Positions 12,831-21,394 of a stretch of 49,961 bases of DNA are shown here, one piece after another; the stretch's first letter is position 1; each line of letters begins with the position of its first letter. Source of the stretch: an uncultured Chloroflexota bacterium (GTDB taxonomy: Bacteria; Chloroflexota; Anaerolineae; Anaerolineales; UBA4823); contig CAIQIV010000586.1 in the NCBI GenBank assembly GCA_903871905.1, positions 1 through 49,961 on the forward strand, written 5' to 3'. Position numbers and translations under genes: made by a program. The notes under the pieces are model-generated. The model was not told the origin of the DNA and made no database searches. It was given only the letters and a program-made list of their open reading frames with translations.

Positions 12831-14441
12831 GTGATGATAGCGGCTAATTCCCTGAATCATATTTATGTTCTCCTGGCAGAGCACCACCCGGGTGATATGC
12901 GCCTGATCCGCGAGATGTTAGTCTATGTGCCATCTGGAATCCAGAATGCCGTTCGTTTTCATCTGCTGCGGGCAAGTCGCCTGGTGCAGGCCGAGATGAT
13001 TTTGGATACACAACAGGTGAATGTTTTATTGTTGGACCATGCACTGCCTGATGGGAGCGGGGCGGAGACGGTCCGGTTCCTGGCAAAGAAATATCCCCAC
13101 CTGCCGATCCTATCATTGGTTGCAGCGGGAAGCGAAGATCTTGGGGTCGAAATGATCCGTTCAGGTGCGCAGGACTGCCTGGTCAAAGGCCGTTTTAACC
13201 AGGATGTATTACGACAGGCTATCCACTATGGGATTGAGCGCAAACGGATGACGGAAATGTTGCAGCGGCTCAATAACGAGTTGGAGTTCCGGGTCCTGGA
13301 ACGTACTCAGGAACTGGCGGATGCAAACCAGGCGCTGCAGGATGAAAAGATAATGCTTCGTTTTCATCACCAGCGGATCAAATCTCTGGCTGACCTGTCT
13401 CAGAAGTTAGCCGAAATTACTCCTGAGTATCCCGGGATTCTCGATCTGGTGACGCGGTGGACTGCGGAGCAGATGGATGGCGTGTGTGCAGTGAGCCTGA
13501 TCACAGAGGATGTGGAGTGGGTGAGCCGGGCTGTGCGGCCCTCTGCACGCACCAGCAGTGAGCTCACTGCGGATCCAGTTCTTCGATTTGAGCAGCATTA
13601 TTCGACTGCTTTGCCTTTGCAAGCTCATGGAGAGATTCTGGGAGAAATCATGGTTACCCGATCTGCGCTTTCAGGTCCTTTTTCCGAGGATGATATCCAA
13701 TTCCTGGTAGGCATTGCTGACCGGATCGCCCAATCGTTGCAAAATGCCAGGCTTTTTGCCCAGATCACCAACAGCAGGAAGAGCTTGAGTATTTTATCCA
13801 GCCGCCTGGTAGAAGTGCAGGAAAAGGAGCGGCGCGATATCGCCCGCGAGCTGCATGATGAGATTGGTCAGGAGTTGACGGGCCTGAAGTTGATGCTTAA
13901 AAGATTCTCGAGTTCCAATATTCAGCGGCAGCGGGCAGATTTTATGGAGGCAGAACAGCTGGTCAACAGCCTGCTGGGAAAGGTCCGTGAGTTGTCTTTA
14001 AATCTGAGACCGGCTATGCTTGATGACCTGGGGCTACTGCCGGCCCTGCTCTGGTTGGTCGATCGGTATTCTGCCCAGACCAGTATCGAGATTCTCTTTC
14101 GTCATTTGGGGATCGAGCACATGCGCTTTTCCCCTGGTGTTGAGACGGGTGCTTTCAGGATTATCCAGGAAGCCATGACCAATATTGCCCGTCACGCCGC
14201 TGTGAACAGGGCCAAGGTGGCGGTAAGGGCGGAAGATTCTTTATTGAGAATCTTCGTCGAAGATAATGGAAAAGGCTTTGATCCGGAAATTGTTCGGCTG
14301 ACAGGTACCAGTTCCGGCCTGACAGGGATGCAGGAACGAGCGATATCCCTGGGAGGCAGCTGCTCGATCTATTCGGCGCTAGGCAAGGGAACCCGATTGG
14401 TGGCTACACTTCCTATTAACGATGAAAAGGATTACCGATGA
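12831..14441 (+). CDS. Hybrid sensor histidine kinase: N-terminal receiver + GAF-like + HisKA_3/HATPase_c (NarX/DegS class)
   Basis: REC (VLLLDHALPDGSG), H-box IARELHDEIGQEL, N box EAMTNIARHA, G1 VEDNGKGF, G2 GLTGMQERA. Start is GTG 12831 or ATG 12834; TAAAAT lies at 12822-12827. Confidence 0.88.
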   Translation: MMIAANSLNHIYVLLAEHHPGDMRLIREMLVYVPSGIQNAVRFHLLRASRLVQAEMILDTQQVNVLLLDHALPDGSGAETVRFLAKKYPHLPILSLVAAGSEDLGVEMIRSGAQDCLVKGRFNQDVLRQAIHYGIERKRMTEMLQRLNNELEFRVLERTQELADANQALQDEKIMLRFHHQRIKSLADLSQKLAEITPEYPGILDLVTRWTAEQMDGVCAVSLITEDVEWVSRAVRPSARTSSELTADPVLRFEQHYSTALPLQAHGEILGEIMVTRSALSGPFSEDDIQFLVGIADRIAQSLQNARLFAQITNSRKSLSILSSRLVEVQEKERRDIARELHDEIGQELTGLKLMLKRFSSSNIQRQRADFMEAEQLVNSLLGKVRELSLNLRPAMLDDLGLLPALLWLVDRYSAQTSIEILFRHLGIEHMRFSPGVETGAFRIIQEAMTNIARHAAVNRAKVAVRAEDSLLRIFVEDNGKGFDPEIVRLTGTSSGLTGMQERAISLGGSCSIYSALGKGTRLVATLPINDEKDYR

Positions 14442-15082
14442 GTATTTCCATTGTTATTGCCGATGATCACCAGATCGTGCGCAAGGGAATCCGCGCTCTT
14501 CTAGAGATGGAACAGGGTTTTTGCGTGGTGGGTGAAGCCAGCGATGGCCTGTCTGCAGTACAGATGGTGGACAAATTGGAACCGGATATCCTGATCCTGG
14601 ACTTGATGATGCCGGGACTGGGGGGGCTGGAAGTTGCCCGGCAAGTGCATCACAGGAAACTCAAAACCAGGATAATTGTGCTCTCCATGCATGCTAATGA
14701 AGCGTACGTATTGGATGCGTTGCGCAATGGGGTATCAGGTTATGTGCTTAAAGACGCCAGTACGGATGATCTGGTGAGTGCCGTGATCCAGGTTGCCAGC
14801 GGGCAGCGCTTTTTGAGCGCCCCAATCTCAGAGCGCGCCATCCAGGTGTATATCCAGAAGGCCAGCGAGCAGGGAGCCGATCATTATGAAACATTGACTG
14901 AACGGGAGCGGGAAGTTCTGCACCTGGTTGCAGAAGGGCTGAGCAGTACTGAAATAGCCACCCGCCTGTCTCTCAGTTCGCGTACCGTGGAAGATCACCG
15001 CAATCATTTGATGCGCAAGCTAAACTTGCACAACCAGACAGACCTGATCCGTTTCGCTTTGCGCCGGGGGATCATCGAGTAA
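14438..15082 (+). CDS. NarL/FixJ-family response regulator (REC + LuxR HTH)
   Basis: IADDHQIV and ILILDLMMPG receiver motifs. HTH is LTEREREVLHLVAEGLSSTEIATRLSLSSRTVEDHRNHLMRKL. ATGA overlap with the kinase gene. Confidence 0.93.
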   Translation: MSISIVIADDHQIVRKGIRALLEMEQGFCVVGEASDGLSAVQMVDKLEPDILILDLMMPGLGGLEVARQVHHRKLKTRIIVLSMHANEAYVLDALRNGVSGYVLKDASTDDLVSAVIQVASGQRFLSAPISERAIQVYIQKASEQGADHYETLTEREREVLHLVAEGLSSTEIATRLSLSSRTVEDHRNHLMRKLNLHNQTDLIRFALRRGIIE

Positions 15083-15118
15083 ATCAGCATCCCTATAAAT
15101 CGATGGTTATTTCTTGGC

Positions 15119-15143
15119 CCCTGTGAGAAATCACGGGTTTTTT
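15119..15143 (+). terminator. Intrinsic terminator after the two-component pair
   Basis: CCC(T)GTGA - GAAA - TCACGGG hairpin followed by TTTTTT (15138-15143). Confidence 0.6.
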
Positions 15144-15280
15144 GCGGTCAGTTATCCGTATTCTTACGGTGGATCAGCATCAGCAATGAAGTTAAGATAG
15201 GGTTGTAATGAAATCCGGTGGATTTTGCCTGTCCGAACAGTCTGAAGCATTTCACAGGGTGAGGAGGAAGATTTATAGTC

Positions 15281-16048
15281 GTGTGCAATATGGAAGAAAA
15301 ATCAGTTAATGATCCTCATCTCTGTCTGATGGTGCAAACGGATTTTGAGCAGATGGTGAACATACTGCGGCATGATTTACAGGACACACTGCGCCTGGTG
15401 ATCAGTTATTTGCGCTTACTGGAAAATCATCGTATGCAGTTGAGCCCAAATGATCGAGAATTTCTTTCCTATGCCCTGGACAGTGCAGATCGTTGCCAGC
15501 ACCTGGTGAGTGGACTGCTGGCTTATGCCAGGGTGGCTGGCGCGCCTGTTTCCCGGACTATGGTTGACTGCCAGGAGATGATAGAACAGGTTGTGGAAGA
15601 TATGCAACTGGTGATTGAGGACACGCAGGCGGTAATCCAATACCGGGATTTGCCAGTGATTGAAGCCGATCCAGAGCAGATGGAGCTGGTTTTCCACGGA
15701 ATTATTGAAACAGCCGTGCATCACTGCCGGGATTGTCCGCCCCATGTGCAAATCAGCGGCGATCCGACTGGCGAGGGCTGGGATTTTACCATCCATATGA
15801 ATGGGCCAGAAATTGAGCCCGGGGCAGTGGATAAGTTGTTCTCGCTGTTCACGCCTGTGTCGCCGGTGGTAAAAGACCCGGGAGTAGACCTGGCGATTTG
15901 TAAAAGGGTTATCCAAAACCATGATGGAAAAATCTGGGCAGCCTCACGGAATGTGGATGGAGTCACAATTGGTTTTTCAATTCCCAGGGCAGACCGGTCC
16001 CTCAACCCTGAAGTTGTTACCCATGTTGAGAATAAGAAAGGAGAGTAA
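15281..16048 (+). CDS. Sensor-less histidine-kinase-like protein (HisKA His present, ATP-binding boxes degenerate)
   Basis: 255 aa. H-box ILRHDLQDTLRLV. The N box reads GIIETAVHH, G1 reads HMNGPE and G2 reads DPGVDL. GAGGAGG lies 13 nt upstream of GTG 15281 (alternative start ATG 15290). Confidence 0.75.
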   Translation: MCNMEEKSVNDPHLCLMVQTDFEQMVNILRHDLQDTLRLVISYLRLLENHRMQLSPNDREFLSYALDSADRCQHLVSGLLAYARVAGAPVSRTMVDCQEMIEQVVEDMQLVIEDTQAVIQYRDLPVIEADPEQMELVFHGIIETAVHHCRDCPPHVQISGDPTGEGWDFTIHMNGPEIEPGAVDKLFSLFTPVSPVVKDPGVDLAICKRVIQNHDGKIWAASRNVDGVTIGFSIPRADRSLNPEVVTHVENKKGE

Positions 16049-16051
16049 AAG

Positions 16052-18502
16052 ATGTTACGATGGTTTGATAATTTGCGTATGGGCCGGAAGCTGATATTAT
16101 CATTCTTGATTGTGGCGCTTCTGGCCGGTGGGGTGGTTGGGGGTTTGGCTTACTATAATCTGATGCAGATGCAAAACATTCTGCACGAGATCACCCTGCA
16201 GCGTGTTCCTTCGGTGAAGAATGCGACCGGGGTGGAGCGTTATGCTTTGCGCACGATTATGGACGAAAAGATGTATCTGCTGGCTGCCAACGATTCGCGC
16301 ATGAATAAAGATACTTACCAGCAGTCAGCAATGAAGAACATTGAGGAGATTGTCAAATACCTGGATGAGGTCGACAAGGTGGCCAGGGAATATAACGACC
16401 AGGACCTGCTGGGAAAATCCCAGGAAGTGCGCAAAGTCACCGAGCAGTACCGTGGGTTGTACAACCAGGGCGTTAGCAAGCTGAACGAGCAGCAGAAGAT
16501 GGCTACGGTCATGGTGGAGAATGGCGTCCAAGTTACCGACCTGGCAAAGGCGTATTTCAACGATGTGGTCGGGAAGACCGATGAGCAGTCTTTACAGGCA
16601 TTGCCCATCCTGGTCAGCATCTGGGATACCGCTCTTGAGACCCGTCTGAATCAAAACAAGTACATGCTGTATAAGGATCAGAAATACTATACTGCTCTAG
16701 AGGATGGGATCAAGAAGCTGGGCACTTTTTACCAGGACCTGGAAAAGGTTACCACGGATGCCACAGGTTTGCAGCGTATAAAGGATGCCCAACAGGCAAC
16801 AGATGATTACTATTCAGCTGCACAGGAGTGGGTCAAGGCAGATAACGAGCTGAATCAGATCCTGGAACAGATGGCGACAATAGGGACCCAGGTTCAGGAA
16901 AACGCCATGGCTGCCGAGGATGCCGGCTGGCAAGCTGCGGATCTAAGCCGCGATGCGGCTGATGCGGCTTCGAAGCGGGCGGTGACGGTCACCATTGTTG
17001 CAGTTGTGCTGGCCATCCTGGCTTCCGTTGGCTTGGGATTCTGGATCTCGCGTACCATCACCACCCCGCTAGGGATCGCGGTATCAACTGCCCAGTTGTT
17101 GAAGGAAGGCGACCTGGCCAGGGATATGACCGATGGGGAAAAAGACCGGGTGAGGCTGCGCAAGGATGAGATTGGGGACCTGGGTAAAGCTTTTGATGGT
17201 CTGATTAATTATATGCAGGGTATGGGTGAAGTGGCTTTTCAGGTAGCTCAGAACGACTTAACGGTGACGGTCAAACCGAAATCTGCAAAGGACGAGCTGG
17301 GCAATGCCTTCCTGAAAATGATCAATGGTCTGCGGGACACGGTTGCCCAGGTTGCCGCCAATGCCCGGAACCTGAACGCAGCCTCGGATCAACTGGCTAC
17401 TGCAGCCAGTCAGGCAGGGCAGGCCACCAGCCAGATTGCCACCACGGTCCAGCAGGTGGCGCGCGGCACCGCCCAGCAGTCTGAGGCGGTCACTCGGACA
17501 GCGGCTTCGGTGGAGCAGATGGGGCGGGCAATTACTGGTGTGGCCAGAGGGGCACAAGAGCAGGCTGAGTCGGTCAGCAAGGCATCGGCAATTACCTCCC
17601 AAATCACGGCTGCCATTGAGCAGGTTTCAGGCAATGCCGATGCGGTCACCCGTGATTCAGGGAGCGCAGCCCAGGCTGCACGCTCAGGGGTGAGAACAGT
17701 CGAAGATACTATCCAGGGAATGCACTCCATCAAGGACAAGGTTGGCATCTCGGCCCAGAAAGTCCAGGAGATGGGGCAGCGATCGGACCAGATTGGAGCA
17801 ATTGTCGAAACCATCGAAGATATTGCCTCGCAGACCAACCTGTTGGCGCTGAATGCAGCTATTGAGGCGGCGCGCGCTGGAGAGCATGGCAAGGGCTTCG
17901 CGGTGGTGGCAGACGAAGTCCGCAAACTGGCTGAGAGGGCTGGCGGGGCAACCAAAGAGATTGGCGCCCTGATCAAGAGCATCCAGAAAACCGTAGAGGA
18001 AGCAGTTACTGCAATGAACGAAGGGGCGCGCGAGGTGGAAGTGGGTGTTGCCAGCGCCAACCAGGCCGGCCAGGCATTGGAGGATATTTTGCAGGCGGCA
18101 GAGGCGGTCTTCCAACAGGCCAACCAGGCATCCCAGGCTTCTCAACGTATGGCTGCTGCCTCGAATGAGCTGGTTGAGGCGGTGGATTCGGTCTCGGCGG
18201 TGGTGGAAGAAAACACTGCAGCCACGGAGGAGATGGCTGCCGGCTCTAACGAGGTGACGCAGGCAATCGAAAATATTGCCAGCGTCAGCGAGGAAAACAG
18301 TGCCGCGGTGGAGCAGGTCAGCGCCAGCGCTGAAGAGATGAGCGCCCAGGTTGAAGAGGTCACTGCATCTGCTCAGGCATTGGCTGAAATGTCGGCTGTG
18401 CTGCAAGACCTGGTTTCAGCTTTCAAGCTGGACAGCAGCGAAACTGCTTTACCGGTTCAGGGGGGGAGAAAGGCCTCCGGTGCTGTAAGGAGCGGGCGGT
18501 AG
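16052..18502 (+). CDS. Methyl-accepting chemotaxis protein (two TM segments, large extracytoplasmic domain, HAMP, MA domain)
   Basis: 816 aa. Signalling hairpin [48 protein letters not shown]. Only 3 nt separate it from the upstream gene. Confidence 0.95.
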
Positions 18503-18575
18503 GTGCGCCTGCTGGCTGCTTACTTCCCTCTCGAATGGATGAATGGTGCACAAATTCTTAAGGAGATAAATAGCT

Positions 18576-19016
18576 ATGGAATACCAGGTGGTTGTTTTTG
18601 AACTGGAAAAAGAATATTTTGGGGTGGATATTGCGGTAGTTGAAGGGATTATCAAGATGCAGCCCATCACCATCATCCCCCATGCACCTTACTATATTGA
18701 GGGTGTTATTAACCTGCGCGGCTCCATTCTTCCTGTGATGGATTTGGGTAAAAGATTTGGCATGGGTGGGCGGAGTTTGGATCAAAACAGCCGGATCGTG
18801 GTGATCGCTCTGCCGGGCGCCAAGGCAGGCATGATCGTCGATGGCGTTTCCGAGGTGCTGCGCATTCCGGATGAATCCATTGAAACGACACCTCCAATGG
18901 TGACGGACGTTGATTCTGTTTATATCACTGGGATCGCCAAGGTGGATGAGCGTTTGGTCATCCTGCTGGATCCAGAAAGGATCATTGACCCGGAGAAGCA
19001 TCTGACCCAGGTATAA
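18576..19016 (+). CDS. cheW: Chemotaxis coupling protein CheW
   Basis: 146 aa. CheW pattern EYFGVDIAVVEGII...GVINLRGSILPVMDLGKRFG. AAGGAG RBS. Confidence 0.93.
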   Translation: MEYQVVVFELEKEYFGVDIAVVEGIIKMQPITIIPHAPYYIEGVINLRGSILPVMDLGKRFGMGGRSLDQNSRIVVIALPGAKAGMIVDGVSEVLRIPDESIETTPPMVTDVDSVYITGIAKVDERLVILLDPERIIDPEKHLTQV

Positions 19017-19057
19017 CTGGGATTTTTCCCGGTACTTTATACAGGCTCAACAGGCTT

Positions 19058-19087
19058 GGGGCTGTCCGAAAAGTAATGGACAGCCCC
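19058..19087 (+). terminator. Hairpin after cheW (probable terminator)
   Basis: Perfect 10-bp stem GGGGCTGTCC / GGACAGCCCC with a 10-nt loop. The T tail is weak (TTCAAT). Confidence 0.45.
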
Positions 19088-19148
19088 TTCAATATCCAGG
19101 AAGGGTGAGATTTATAATCCATCTCTCTTCATTAAATATGAACATGCG

Positions 19149-19157
19149 TGCTATAAT
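19149..19157 (+). promoter_or_regulatory. Extended -10 promoter element TGcTATAAT
   Basis: TGCTATAAT at 19149-19157, with a weak -35 TTCATT at 19128-19133. Lies 30-48 nt upstream of the candidate starts of the next gene. Confidence 0.5.
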
Positions 19158-19186
19158 TTGCAGCGAGGTGCAAGCTTGTTCAAGGG

Positions 19187-21394
19187 TTGTTGAAGATAGA
19201 TGTTATGCTGGAATTGAGGGATTTTTTTCATCTTCCGCAGATTGATGAGTGGATCCGGACCATGCTGGCAGCCGGACCGGGGCTGCGGCTGATTGCAGGG
19301 CCTGATGCCAGGCTGGGTCAGCATGCCGACTATCGCGATGGTTTTCGTCCCAGCGGCAGATCTGCCCTGTTCTGGTTGTTGATGGATATGTTCCTGGCAG
19401 AATCACCTTCAAAAACCTGCATCGTTGTGACACAGGACAGGCAGAATGTCCGCATTCAGCGCGAGTTCCGCCGACGTGTCCAGGTGTTTGCCACCACCCC
19501 ATCGAACTCCTATGTGAATCAAATTGCCCTGGCTATGGCTCGTCGCCCTCAACTGTTGGTGGTAGACCGGTTTGAACCAGATACGGCTCCAATTATCCTC
19601 CAGGCGGCTAACCTGGGGTTGGTAGTCCTTTCGCAGATGGATACGGTCTTGTGGGGCAGTGGAGTGTGCAGCCAGTTGGTTGAGATGGGTTTGACCTCTG
19701 TCCAGCTTGCCAGCCTGGCCTGGGTGGTGGCAGTCCACCGGCTGCCAGGGTTGTGCCCGCACTGCAGGCGGGAGGTGCTTGAACTGGATTCAACAGGTGA
19801 GCAGCCTGGAACCATGTTTATCAGCCCGGGCTGCCAGGCCTGCCGAGGGAGCGGGCGCCAGGGAGATGTGGCTGCCTTTGACATCTTGCATCTTCCTCGC
19901 GGGGCTCACGGTCAGGGCGAGCTGGTCAGCCAGGTGGCCATGCAGGATTACCTGGAGCGCCTGGCTGTCCTGGGGCATATTGACCAGGAGAGCAGCCGGT
20001 ATTACTGCACCGATCAGCTGCGCCGGGCATTTCAACTTCTGACCTGGCGCGAGCAGGTCCTGGCTGAGAAATCTTCTGCATACGAGCGTAAGATGGCAGA
20101 GCTGGAGGCTGCAAACAGGGTACTGCAGCAGCGAACAACTTCCTTGTTTTCCTTGGAGGAGATTAGCCAGGCGCTGATCGCCTCGGTTGACCTGCCAGAT
20201 TTGGCAGACCGTGTCTGCCGCCGCGCCCGGGATGTGTGCGGCGCCGATCGAGCCATCCTCTTCTTTCACAACTCACAGCGGCAGGTGGAAGTCCTGGCAG
20301 TTGGGGGATGGCCTGCAGTGCTGCTGCACCAGAGGCTGCAGCCGGAGGCGCTGGCAGAGATCACGAAGGGCAATGATCCGGTGGTCCTCCAGCGCTGGCC
20401 GCCCAGCATCCCGCAGCCAGAACTGCCCCGCAACTTGTACTTGAGGGCGGGGCTTTACGTGCCTTTGGTGACACAGAACACCAGTTCAGGGGGGTTGCTG
20501 GTTCATTCCACCCTGAAGAGTTTTTTCTCGCCGGGTGAGATTGCCTTACTTAAAGCGCTTGCCAATCAGGCGGCGTTGGCTTTCCAGCGCGCCAGGATGG
20601 TGCAGGATCTGCAGGCCAAGATAGCCCTCCTGGAGACCGCCCAATCCGAGCTGGCCAAGAAGGAGAGATTGGAGCGCGAGCTGGAATTAGCGCGCCAGGT
20701 TCAGCAGAGCCTGCTGCCAACCACCTTCCCGGAGATGCGCGGTTTCCGTTTCGCCGCACGCAACGAGCCCGCCCGCCAGGTTGGGGGGGATTTTTATGAT
20801 GTTTTTGCCCTGGATGAGCAGCATTTTGGCATCGTGGTTGCAGATGTTTCAGATAAAGGGATGCCGGCCGCTTTGTATATGGCCCTGACACGCAGTCTGC
20901 TGCTGGCTGAAGCCCGGCGAGAACGTTCGCCGCAAAAGGTTGTACGGGATGTGAACCAGCTGCTGCTTGAGCTGGGCCAACCGGACATGTTTGTCACCCT
21001 GTTCTATGGCGTGGTGGACTGTATCAGCCGGCGGCTGATTTACACCCGTGCCGGTCATGATCACCCCTTCTGGGTGCATGATGCCCAGGTTCACTTCCTG
21101 GGGGGGAGGGGCGCAGCGCTTGGGATCCTGGATTCTGCTGAATTGGAAATGACAGAAGAATGGGTCGATCTGGCTGCAGGGGATCGCCTGGTGCTTTACA
21201 CCGATGGATTGACCGATGCCTTGAATGTTGCAGGCGAGCTATATCAGCGGGAAAGGTTGGCGGCGCTGGTGCAGTCAGCAGGTCATCTCCCGGCTGAACT
21301 GCTGTGCGAGGTGATCTTTGCCTCGTTGATGGAGTTCCAGGAGGGCGCTGAGCAGTATGATGACATGACACTGCTGGTGGTGGAAGTGCTCTGA
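19187..21394 (+). CDS. Fusion protein: degenerate GspE/PilB-type secretion-ATPase domain + coiled coil + GAF + PP2C/SpoIIE phosphatase
   Basis: 735 aa. The N-terminal part follows T2SS-E topology with the Cys4 motif retained (CPHC..CQAC) but with altered Walker A, Walker B, Asp and His boxes. C-terminal SpoIIE motifs are GGDFYDVF, VVADVSDKGMPAALYM, YTRAGHDHP, LYTDGLTDA and DDMTLLVVEV. Start is TTG 19187 or ATG 19205. Confidence 0.8.
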   Translation: MLKIDVMLELRDFFHLPQIDEWIRTMLAAGPGLRLIAGPDARLGQHADYRDGFRPSGRSALFWLLMDMFLAESPSKTCIVVTQDRQNVRIQREFRRRVQVFATTPSNSYVNQIALAMARRPQLLVVDRFEPDTAPIILQAANLGLVVLSQMDTVLWGSGVCSQLVEMGLTSVQLASLAWVVAVHRLPGLCPHCRREVLELDSTGEQPGTMFISPGCQACRGSGRQGDVAAFDILHLPRGAHGQGELVSQVAMQDYLERLAVLGHIDQESSRYYCTDQLRRAFQLLTWREQVLAEKSSAYERKMAELEAANRVLQQRTTSLFSLEEISQALIASVDLPDLADRVCRRARDVCGADRAILFFHNSQRQVEVLAVGGWPAVLLHQRLQPEALAEITKGNDPVVLQRWPPSIPQPELPRNLYLRAGLYVPLVTQNTSSGGLLVHSTLKSFFSPGEIALLKALANQAALAFQRARMVQDLQAKIALLETAQSELAKKERLERELELARQVQQSLLPTTFPEMRGFRFAARNEPARQVGGDFYDVFALDEQHFGIVVADVSDKGMPAALYMALTRSLLLAEARRERSPQKVVRDVNQLLLELGQPDMFVTLFYGVVDCISRRLIYTRAGHDHPFWVHDAQVHFLGGRGAALGILDSAELEMTEEWVDLAAGDRLVLYTDGLTDALNVAGELYQRERLAALVQSAGHLPAELLCEVIFASLMEFQEGAEQYDDMTLLVVEVL

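Follow-up and report, generated by a model that had tools for sequence, protein, structure and literature searches.

Does a chemoreceptor whose gene follows that of a degenerate histidine kinase report to this protein, or to CheA as other receptors do? The question is raised by a locus in an uncultured Chloroflexota bacterium (GenBank assembly GCA_903871905.1, contig CAIQIV010000586.1, positions 1 to 49,961; these 49,961 nucleotides are hereafter called the window), in which three consecutive genes encode a small protein resembling a histidine kinase, a methyl-accepting chemotaxis protein (MCP) and the coupling protein CheW. An earlier note, made from the letters of the window, had described the first product as a class-I DHp protein that has no sensor and whose ATP-binding boxes all deviate from consensus, a candidate pseudokinase, phosphotransfer or phosphatase module co-transcribed with the MCP and CheW, and had proposed that receptor and coupling protein are wired to it rather than to CheA. 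Our study supports the description, and argues against the wiring. The three genes are as follows.

15281-16048, + strand: predicted soluble pseudo-histidine kinase with a HisKA (DHp) domain and a degenerate HATPase_c (catalytic and ATP-binding, CA) domain; 255 amino acids from a GTG start, or 252 from the likelier ATG at 15290
16052-18502, + strand: methyl-accepting chemotaxis protein, 816 amino acids; Pfam 4HB_MCP_1, HAMP and MCPsignal (146 bits)
18576-19016, + strand: CheW coupling protein, 146 amino acids; Pfam CheW (136 bits)

In the explanation that we favour, with moderate confidence, the MCP and CheW would form an ordinary module working on the CheA-CheY pathway of the cell, and the kinase-like protein (the pseudokinase, below) would act independently of ATP through its DHp domain, either as a phosphotransferase or as a phosphatase or binder.

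A kinase core with a degenerate ATP site

The earlier note had pictured a soluble kinase-like protein with an intact H-box and degenerate ATP-binding boxes, a picture with which Pfam, hydropathy and alignments all agree. The domain scan and the alignment of the CA domain that it had suggested recover HisKA (33 bits, above the cut-off) and HATPase_c (44 bits), with the determinants of ATP binding lost from the latter. These two were the only Pfam matches at E <= 0.01, with none to Hpt (P1), H-kinase_dim (P3) or the CheW-like domain (P5); the candidate of a hidden CheA-like or CheW-like protein was rejected, as the pseudokinase has no such domains. In NCBIfam it resembles many sensor kinases, all below threshold, and hydropathy gives no transmembrane segment. 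An AlphaFold2 model, based on an alignment that included paralogues, predicts a DHp helical hairpin and an alpha/beta sandwich (pLDDT 86, pTM 0.78). Its Foldseek matches are class-I kinase cores, namely those of ZraS, HK853 and bacteriophytochrome kinase modules, and also of the non-kinases RetS and DivL. By sequence (HMMER), the best match among solved structures is the kinase module of a Deinococcus bacteriophytochrome (8sgk and 8avv, E about 2e-12).

We verified the degenerate boxes in three ways, by HMMER comparison with solved kinases, by alignment with the nearest intact homologues and against the approximately 104 paralogous CA domains of the genome. The positions concerned are the following.

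15371-15373, + strand: codon of the phospho-acceptor His31 in the H-box RHDLQDTL; the histidine is retained
15686-15724, + strand: former N box, LVFHGIIETAVHH; Asn replaced by Thr144; a HHCRDC motif extends into the next four codons
15791-15814, + strand: former G1 box, IHMNGPEI; Met173 in place of Asp, and Glu in place of the second Gly
15875-15898, + strand: former G2 box and ATP lid, DPGVDLAI; GxGxGL lost

His31 aligns with the catalytic histidine of HK853 and of the BphP kinases and is invariant across homologues; the change of the H-box from SHDLQEPLR to RHDLQDTLR leaves both the histidine and the neighbouring acidic residue (Asp32) in place. The ATP-binding boxes have fared differently. 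In the N box (QNLIGNAIKF to HGIIETAVHH), the position of the Mg-binding Asn is occupied by Thr144 in all three members of the family, which consists of the window protein and two homologues that are 88% and 70% identical to it. In G1 (DNGIGI to HMNGPEI), the adenine-binding Asp has become Met173, with the 70% homologue reading M-L-G-P-G, and in G2 (YPGTGIGLAIC to KDP---GVDLAIC) the glycines are gone and the lid is three residues shorter than in intact homologues. Thr144, Met173 and Asp203 are invariant in the three family members. Among the approximately 104 CA domains of the genome, 77 have every scored position and a handful miss one, and only in the pseudokinase are the N-box Asn and the G1 Asp both missing. 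In those GHKL kinases that have been studied, every one of these pocket residues (Asn, Asp and the glycines of the lid) is needed individually. From the loss of all of them we infer that the pseudokinase should neither bind ATP nor autophosphorylate: its ATP site is dead as judged at the level of sequence, and the protein would have no kinase activity.

Directly after the former N box lies the HHCRDC motif (15719-15736, residues 147-152 in the 255-residue form). All three members share its H148, C149 and C152 (H-C-x-x-C), and conserved cysteines number six in the protein as a whole. That this motif has turned the abandoned ATP pocket into a metal-binding or redox-active site is a purely speculative idea.

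Selection and distribution

Comparison with the syntenic locus of the 88% relative (L044) gave ratios of non-synonymous to synonymous substitution (dN/dS) of 0.21 for the pseudokinase gene, 0.05 for the MCP and 0.03 for CheW, with 0.17 for the REC-GAF kinase gene encoded upstream (REC, receiver domain) and 0.22 for lipB. Within the pseudokinase, dN/dS comes to 0.054 for DHp (residues 20-88) and 0.195 for CA, and identity in the 88% and 70% homologues is, respectively, 97% and 84% in DHp and 87% and 67% in CA. This pattern indicates that the gene is maintained under purifying selection, with the constraint centred on DHp. Since selection appears to act mainly on the domain that carries the phospho-acceptor histidine, the pseudokinase most likely works through its DHp domain, independently of ATP.

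The family is very narrow. An index of 5.8 billion proteins holds just the two homologues already mentioned, the protein's own 50%-identity cluster was alone recovered when 1.84 billion cluster representatives were searched exhaustively with HMMER, and scanning 185,579 species genomes and the JGI metagenome contigs by pattern gave no further members. Sixty genomes from its family and order contain no orthologue, their best matches being parts of long kinases with 33-35% identity. The next matches beyond its own cluster are at most 40% identical and are all longer sensor kinases, and those inspected have whole N, G1 and G2 boxes and PAS or transmembrane sensor regions. The parent sequence family is that of the bacteriophytochrome-type kinase modules (COG4251-like, with the H-box SHDLQEPLR), whose members carry PAS, GAF and PHY or transmembrane sensors together with intact N, G1 and G2 boxes, whereas the pseudokinase has neither. 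It would thus be a genus-restricted offshoot of the SHDLQEPLR-type sensor kinases that has lost its sensor region, and since its nearest relatives, at 40% identity or less, are intact kinases of this type, the loss of the ATP site was probably independent and recent.

The 88% homologue occurs on four metagenome contigs in the gene order REC-GAF kinase, NarL regulator, pseudokinase, MCP, CheW, PP2C fusion, RadA, Dus. The 70% homologue, from sample ERZ1426840, lies on a contig of 1.6 kb, where the next gene begins 5 nt after it. By these gene orders, the 88% relative keeps the arrangement of the trio, and the 70% relative probably does so too. With two close homologues only, deep co-occurrence statistics are impossible.

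The alternative that survives best is that the pseudokinase is a passenger or relic, that is, a truncated kinase duplicate with no receptor-linked function, perhaps decaying, and kept partly for the ribosome-binding site of the MCP gene and for the promoter. A family of one 50% cluster in 1.84 billion representatives, with no match in 185,579 species genomes, would fit this idea, as would the fact that the pseudokinase evolves fastest of the trio; in a genome with approximately 104 kinases and 20 MCPs, moreover, one chance adjacency is not unlikely. Decay is nevertheless hard to reconcile with dN/dS values of 0.21 overall and 0.054 in DHp, which are far from neutral, with a reading frame that is intact at 70% identity and substituted residues (Thr144, Met173 and Asp203) that are themselves conserved, or with a confidently predicted fold, and we consider this explanation unlikely.

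A canonical chemotaxis pathway elsewhere in the genome

The earlier note had found no CheA, CheY, CheR or CheB. This holds for the window, and fails for the genome, a metagenome-assembled genome (MAG) of 6.1 Mb in 865 contigs (92.6% complete, 8% contamination) in which a whole-genome search recovered all four. There are hits to 20 MCP genes, four CheW domains, one CheA dimerisation domain, four CheR and four CheB, counts that are to be read as lower bounds. One contig (L015/L004; G000:C372:22285-31838) encodes on a single strand CheA P3-P4-P5, running off the contig end, together with CheC, CheD, CheY, CheB, CheR, an HDOD protein, two CheX and an MCP; P1 (Hpt) and P2 of CheA are found at the end of another (G000:C711:4568-5241), in a frame that is open to the contig end, the single CheA being split by an assembly gap. 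CheA, CheY and the adaptation enzymes are thus encoded in the same genome, outside the window. No cheW was found in the che cluster on these two contigs, and the assembly has two stand-alone CheW proteins, that of the window and one on contig C555.

The MCP itself has the large extracytoplasmic domain that the earlier note had attributed to it, with about 270 helical periplasmic residues between two transmembrane segments (residues ~14-36 and 309-335 by hydropathy), followed by HAMP and the signalling domain (17663-18202). The 42-residue hairpin tip of this signalling domain is identical in six other MCPs of the genome and matches that of the che-cluster MCP at 41 of 42 positions, and the signalling domains of these last two are 75% identical without a gap. 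From the shared receptor tips and a che cluster that lacks cheW, it can be inferred that the window MCP and CheW assemble with CheA, and the simplest reading is that they would be regular components of the one CheA array.

Relatives of the MCP tell a similar story. Homologues of its sensor domain (45-64% identity) occur in many Chloroflexota MAGs. A full-length orthologue with 68% identity lies within three tandem MCP-CheW pairs (L051), where a cheW gene (59% identity) follows it by about 70 nt and there is no cheA nearby. Of two orthologues with 56% identity, one (L054) belongs to an MCP cluster with a GAF protein and CheW, and the other (L055), like an orthologue with 64% identity (L052), has no partner genes. 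Searches with tblastn at all four loci found no kinase-like gene or remnant. What is conserved is the module of MCP and CheW, with about 70 nt between the two, to which the genus of the window has recently added a kinase-like gene. The trio, taken in the earlier note as a possible conserved unit, is seen at genus depth only, in the 88% and 70% homologues, the 56-68% MCP orthologues standing with CheW or alone. The earlier note had itself named a canonical CheA pathway encoded elsewhere, together with a trio not conserved as a unit, as an outcome that would speak against its proposal, and this is essentially what the genome holds.

None of the 60 nearest genomes encodes a homologue of the MCP sensor domain. 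This is explained by the patchy occurrence of chemotaxis in the lineage: of 37 genomes from the same family and order, only 7 have CheW. The window organism, with its 20 MCP genes, is an outlier. The locus with three MCP-CheW pairs in a row (GCA_964387025.1, contig CAYLUZ010000004.1, 369-8912) continues with more MCP genes and is an unusual amplification of receptor-plus-adaptor modules.

Organisation of the operon

The three genes form the unit that the earlier note had placed between a terminator and a hairpin: our analysis of open reading frames and hairpins recovered the same boundaries, all three frames on the + strand, and gaps of 3 nt between the pseudokinase and MCP genes and 73 nt between the MCP and cheW genes. 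The signals are listed below.

15120-15143, + strand: intrinsic-terminator-like hairpin (15120-15137) and T-run, from a consensus scan; folding energy -13.5 kcal/mol
15251-15279, + strand: promoter-like TTCACA-17-TATAGT, 10 of 12 consensus matches, 10 nt upstream of the ATG at 15290
16037-16045, + strand: Shine-Dalgarno sequence of the MCP gene, AAAGGAGAG, which coincides with the three final codons (K-G-E) of the pseudokinase reading frame
18560-18565, + strand: Shine-Dalgarno sequence AAGGAG of cheW, read from the sequence; ACGGAG in the 88% relative, with a conserved GGAG core
19006-19087, + strand: operon end, with a small hairpin and T-run (19006-19021) and a strong hairpin (19058-19087), from a hairpin scan and folding

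The terminator closes the upstream unit of the REC-GAF kinase and the NarL regulator; its hairpin is kept in the 88% relative, where a T-to-C change betters one pair. The promoter-like site of this relative has an identical -35 box and a -10 box retained as TACAGT. The GAGGAGG Shine-Dalgarno sequence of the first gene in the window is not retained there, and the two homologues (P0002 and P0003) both start at a methionine followed by glutamate (ME..); for these two reasons, translation of the pseudokinase probably begins at the ATG at 15290, giving 252 residues, and a short-leader or leaderless start at this position would fit. After AAAGGAGAG come the TAA codon, 3 nt and the ATG of the MCP gene, a stretch that is identical throughout in the 88% relative, and the K-G-E end is retained in the 70% homologue, the remainder of whose tail varies. 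The hairpin at 19058-19087 has a perfect 11-bp stem (-22.3 kcal/mol, z = -3.6) and no U-run.

That the pseudokinase, MCP and cheW genes form one operon is on these grounds a well-founded prediction. With a single promoter for both genes and the ribosome-binding site of the MCP gene inside the last codons of the pseudokinase gene, synthesis of the pseudokinase would be tied to that of the receptor.

Possible roles of the pseudokinase

According to the explanation that we favour, the MCP and CheW would be an ordinary receptor-plus-coupling-protein module, a recurrent gene pair in motile Chloroflexota, that joins the chemoreceptor array of the cell and signals through the single canonical CheA-CheY pathway of the genome. 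The pseudokinase, for its part, could be a histidine phosphotransferase of the ChpT/Spo0B kind, shuttling phosphoryl groups between receiver domains, or else a phosphatase or binder of a response regulator. At least 150 receiver domains are encoded in the genome, and roughly 40 of these lie in open reading frames of 600 amino acids or more, against Hpt domains in just five long open reading frames and no stand-alone Hpt protein; few Hpt domains for many receivers give circumstantial support to a phosphotransferase role.

Known proteins offer parallels to both options. ChpT is built like a class-I kinase, but its Bergerat domain is atypical; it does not bind ATP or phosphorylate itself, and passes phosphate from CckA on to CtrA and CpdR (PMC3433190). 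Like ChpT of Caulobacter crescentus and Spo0B of Bacillus subtilis, the pseudokinase is small, soluble and sensor-less, with a histidine-bearing DHp hairpin and a Bergerat-like domain that, by the letters of its boxes, would no longer bind ATP. It has no family-level homology to ChpT, Pfam giving no ChpT-type family for it, and ChpT, unlike the pseudokinase, has no link to chemoreceptor genes. DrBphP of Deinococcus radiodurans, for its part, is a phosphatase with undetectable kinase activity (PMC8292422). DivL of Caulobacter and RetS of Pseudomonas have likewise kept a class-I kinase core without normal kinase chemistry and act by binding partners, but they are large proteins with sensor domains. 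In DivL a Tyr replaces the histidine, whereas the pseudokinase keeps the histidine and the adjacent Asp; since the phospho-acceptor is retained, a DivL-type reading was rejected as first choice. The orphan MCP-CheW pairs, such as those of L051, have the same order of MCP then cheW and no cheA nearby, and differ in having no kinase-like gene upstream. The pseudokinase would be a new case, of very narrow distribution, among the kinase-shaped proteins known to need no ATP for their work.

Several points weigh against this explanation, or limit it. Conservation of His31 and of the DHp domain carries limited weight in a family of three members. The MAG is fragmented, which makes the gene counts minimum values, and the che contigs are assigned to the same organism by bin membership, similar G+C content and near-identical MCP tips. 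The tests that we made favour a phosphotransferase no more than a phosphatase, no partner emerged from the analysis, and there was no sign linking the function of the pseudokinase to chemotaxis. The tight operon, finally, itself argues for a functional link with the receptor, which our explanation leaves unspecified.

Such a link could be provided if the pseudokinase were a receptor-associated, ATP-independent phospho-relay, made in fixed proportion to the MCP and exchanging phosphoryl groups with CheY-P or another receiver, which would connect the array to a conventional two-component output or make the pseudokinase a receptor-specific phosphate sink; the former ATP pocket, with its HHCRDC motif, might then perhaps serve as a metal or redox sensor. 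We regard this bolder scheme as quite unlikely.

We give little credence to the idea that the pseudokinase serves its neighbours, exchanging phosphoryl groups with the receiver of the REC-GAF-HisKA_3 kinase or with the NarL regulator and so tying expression of the receptor to their system. The genes lie side by side in the same orientation, their synteny is conserved in L044-L046 and the N-terminal receiver of the REC-GAF kinase has no assigned donor, yet a conserved terminator and a separate promoter-like site stand between the two units, and the synteny is seen at genus depth only. HisKA-type DHp domains and NarL-family regulators are, in addition, unusual partners.

The proposal from which the question arose, an MCP/CheW array coupled directly to the DHp pseudokinase instead of CheA and having a CheA-independent output, draws on the single operon, on the 3-nt gap with the MCP ribosome-binding site inside the pseudokinase gene, on the persistence of this arrangement in the 88% and probably the 70% relative, and on the lack of cheA in the window. 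It now appears very unlikely, as the pseudokinase has no P5/CheW-like domain or known array-docking surface and a dead kinase could not by itself generate a phospho-signal, while the genome has a complete CheA pathway that lacks a cheW of its own, the tip of the MCP is identical or nearly so to those of the 19 other MCPs, and the MCP-CheW pairs of relatives manage without a kinase-like gene. Least likely of all is a kinase that is still active through unconventional ATP binding, since the Asn that binds Mg, the Asp that binds adenine and the glycines of the lid have been lost together and the lid is shortened, even though a Bergerat fold is confidently predicted and an F-box-like LFSLF motif and a G-x-x-L core remain.

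As it stands, the locus is no demonstration of a CheA-independent chemosensory pathway, and its MCP and CheW look like routine parts. Its value would lie in the pseudokinase, which appears to be very young, maintained by selection and descended from intact ancestors that are easily identified, a natural example of a sensor kinase stripped to its DHp part; a similar stripping happened long ago for ChpT and Spo0B. Were its partner CheY or another receiver, the locus would represent a new coupling of chemoreceptor expression to phosphorelay wiring; otherwise the pseudokinase would be one more orphan of its kind.

Neighbouring genes and other observations

The operon is set apart from the neighbouring units by the conserved terminator upstream and the hairpins downstream. 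Upstream lie the genes for the REC-GAF-HisKA_3 kinase (12831-14441) and the NarL-type regulator (14438-15082). The receiver domain of this kinase (window positions 12831-13230) matches the Pfam receiver profile from position 24 only and has LLAEHH at the place of the usual acidic pair, and its phospho-acceptor pocket may be atypical.

The intergenic stretch 15143-15215 is ~97% identical to that of the 88% relative (2 mismatches in ~73 nt), compared with ~90% in the flanking coding DNA. This stretch may serve as an operator or form a small structured element; scanned against Rfam, positions 15000-19300 gave no match to known RNA elements, either in the leader or between the genes.

The gene downstream (19187-21394) encodes a partial T2SS-E/PilB-like region (positions 197-322 of the Pfam profile only) joined to a GAF domain and a SpoIIE-type PP2C phosphatase domain. 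Full-length orthologues of this fusion (44-52% identity) are found in four related genera, in unrelated neighbourhoods and without the trio; as these neighbourhoods are not conserved, they carry no information on the origin of the trio. The earlier note had offered this fusion, beside the pair of REC-GAF kinase and NarL regulator, as another possible output; the analysis speaks neither for nor against these outputs, which belong to separate transcription units.

Elsewhere in the genome (L003, G000:C48:2520-4245), the gene of a ParA/MinD-type ATPase overlaps the start of that of a 316-residue protein with a long Pro/Glu-rich N-terminus and a C-terminal CheW domain, a pair that resembles the ParC/ParP array-positioning system.

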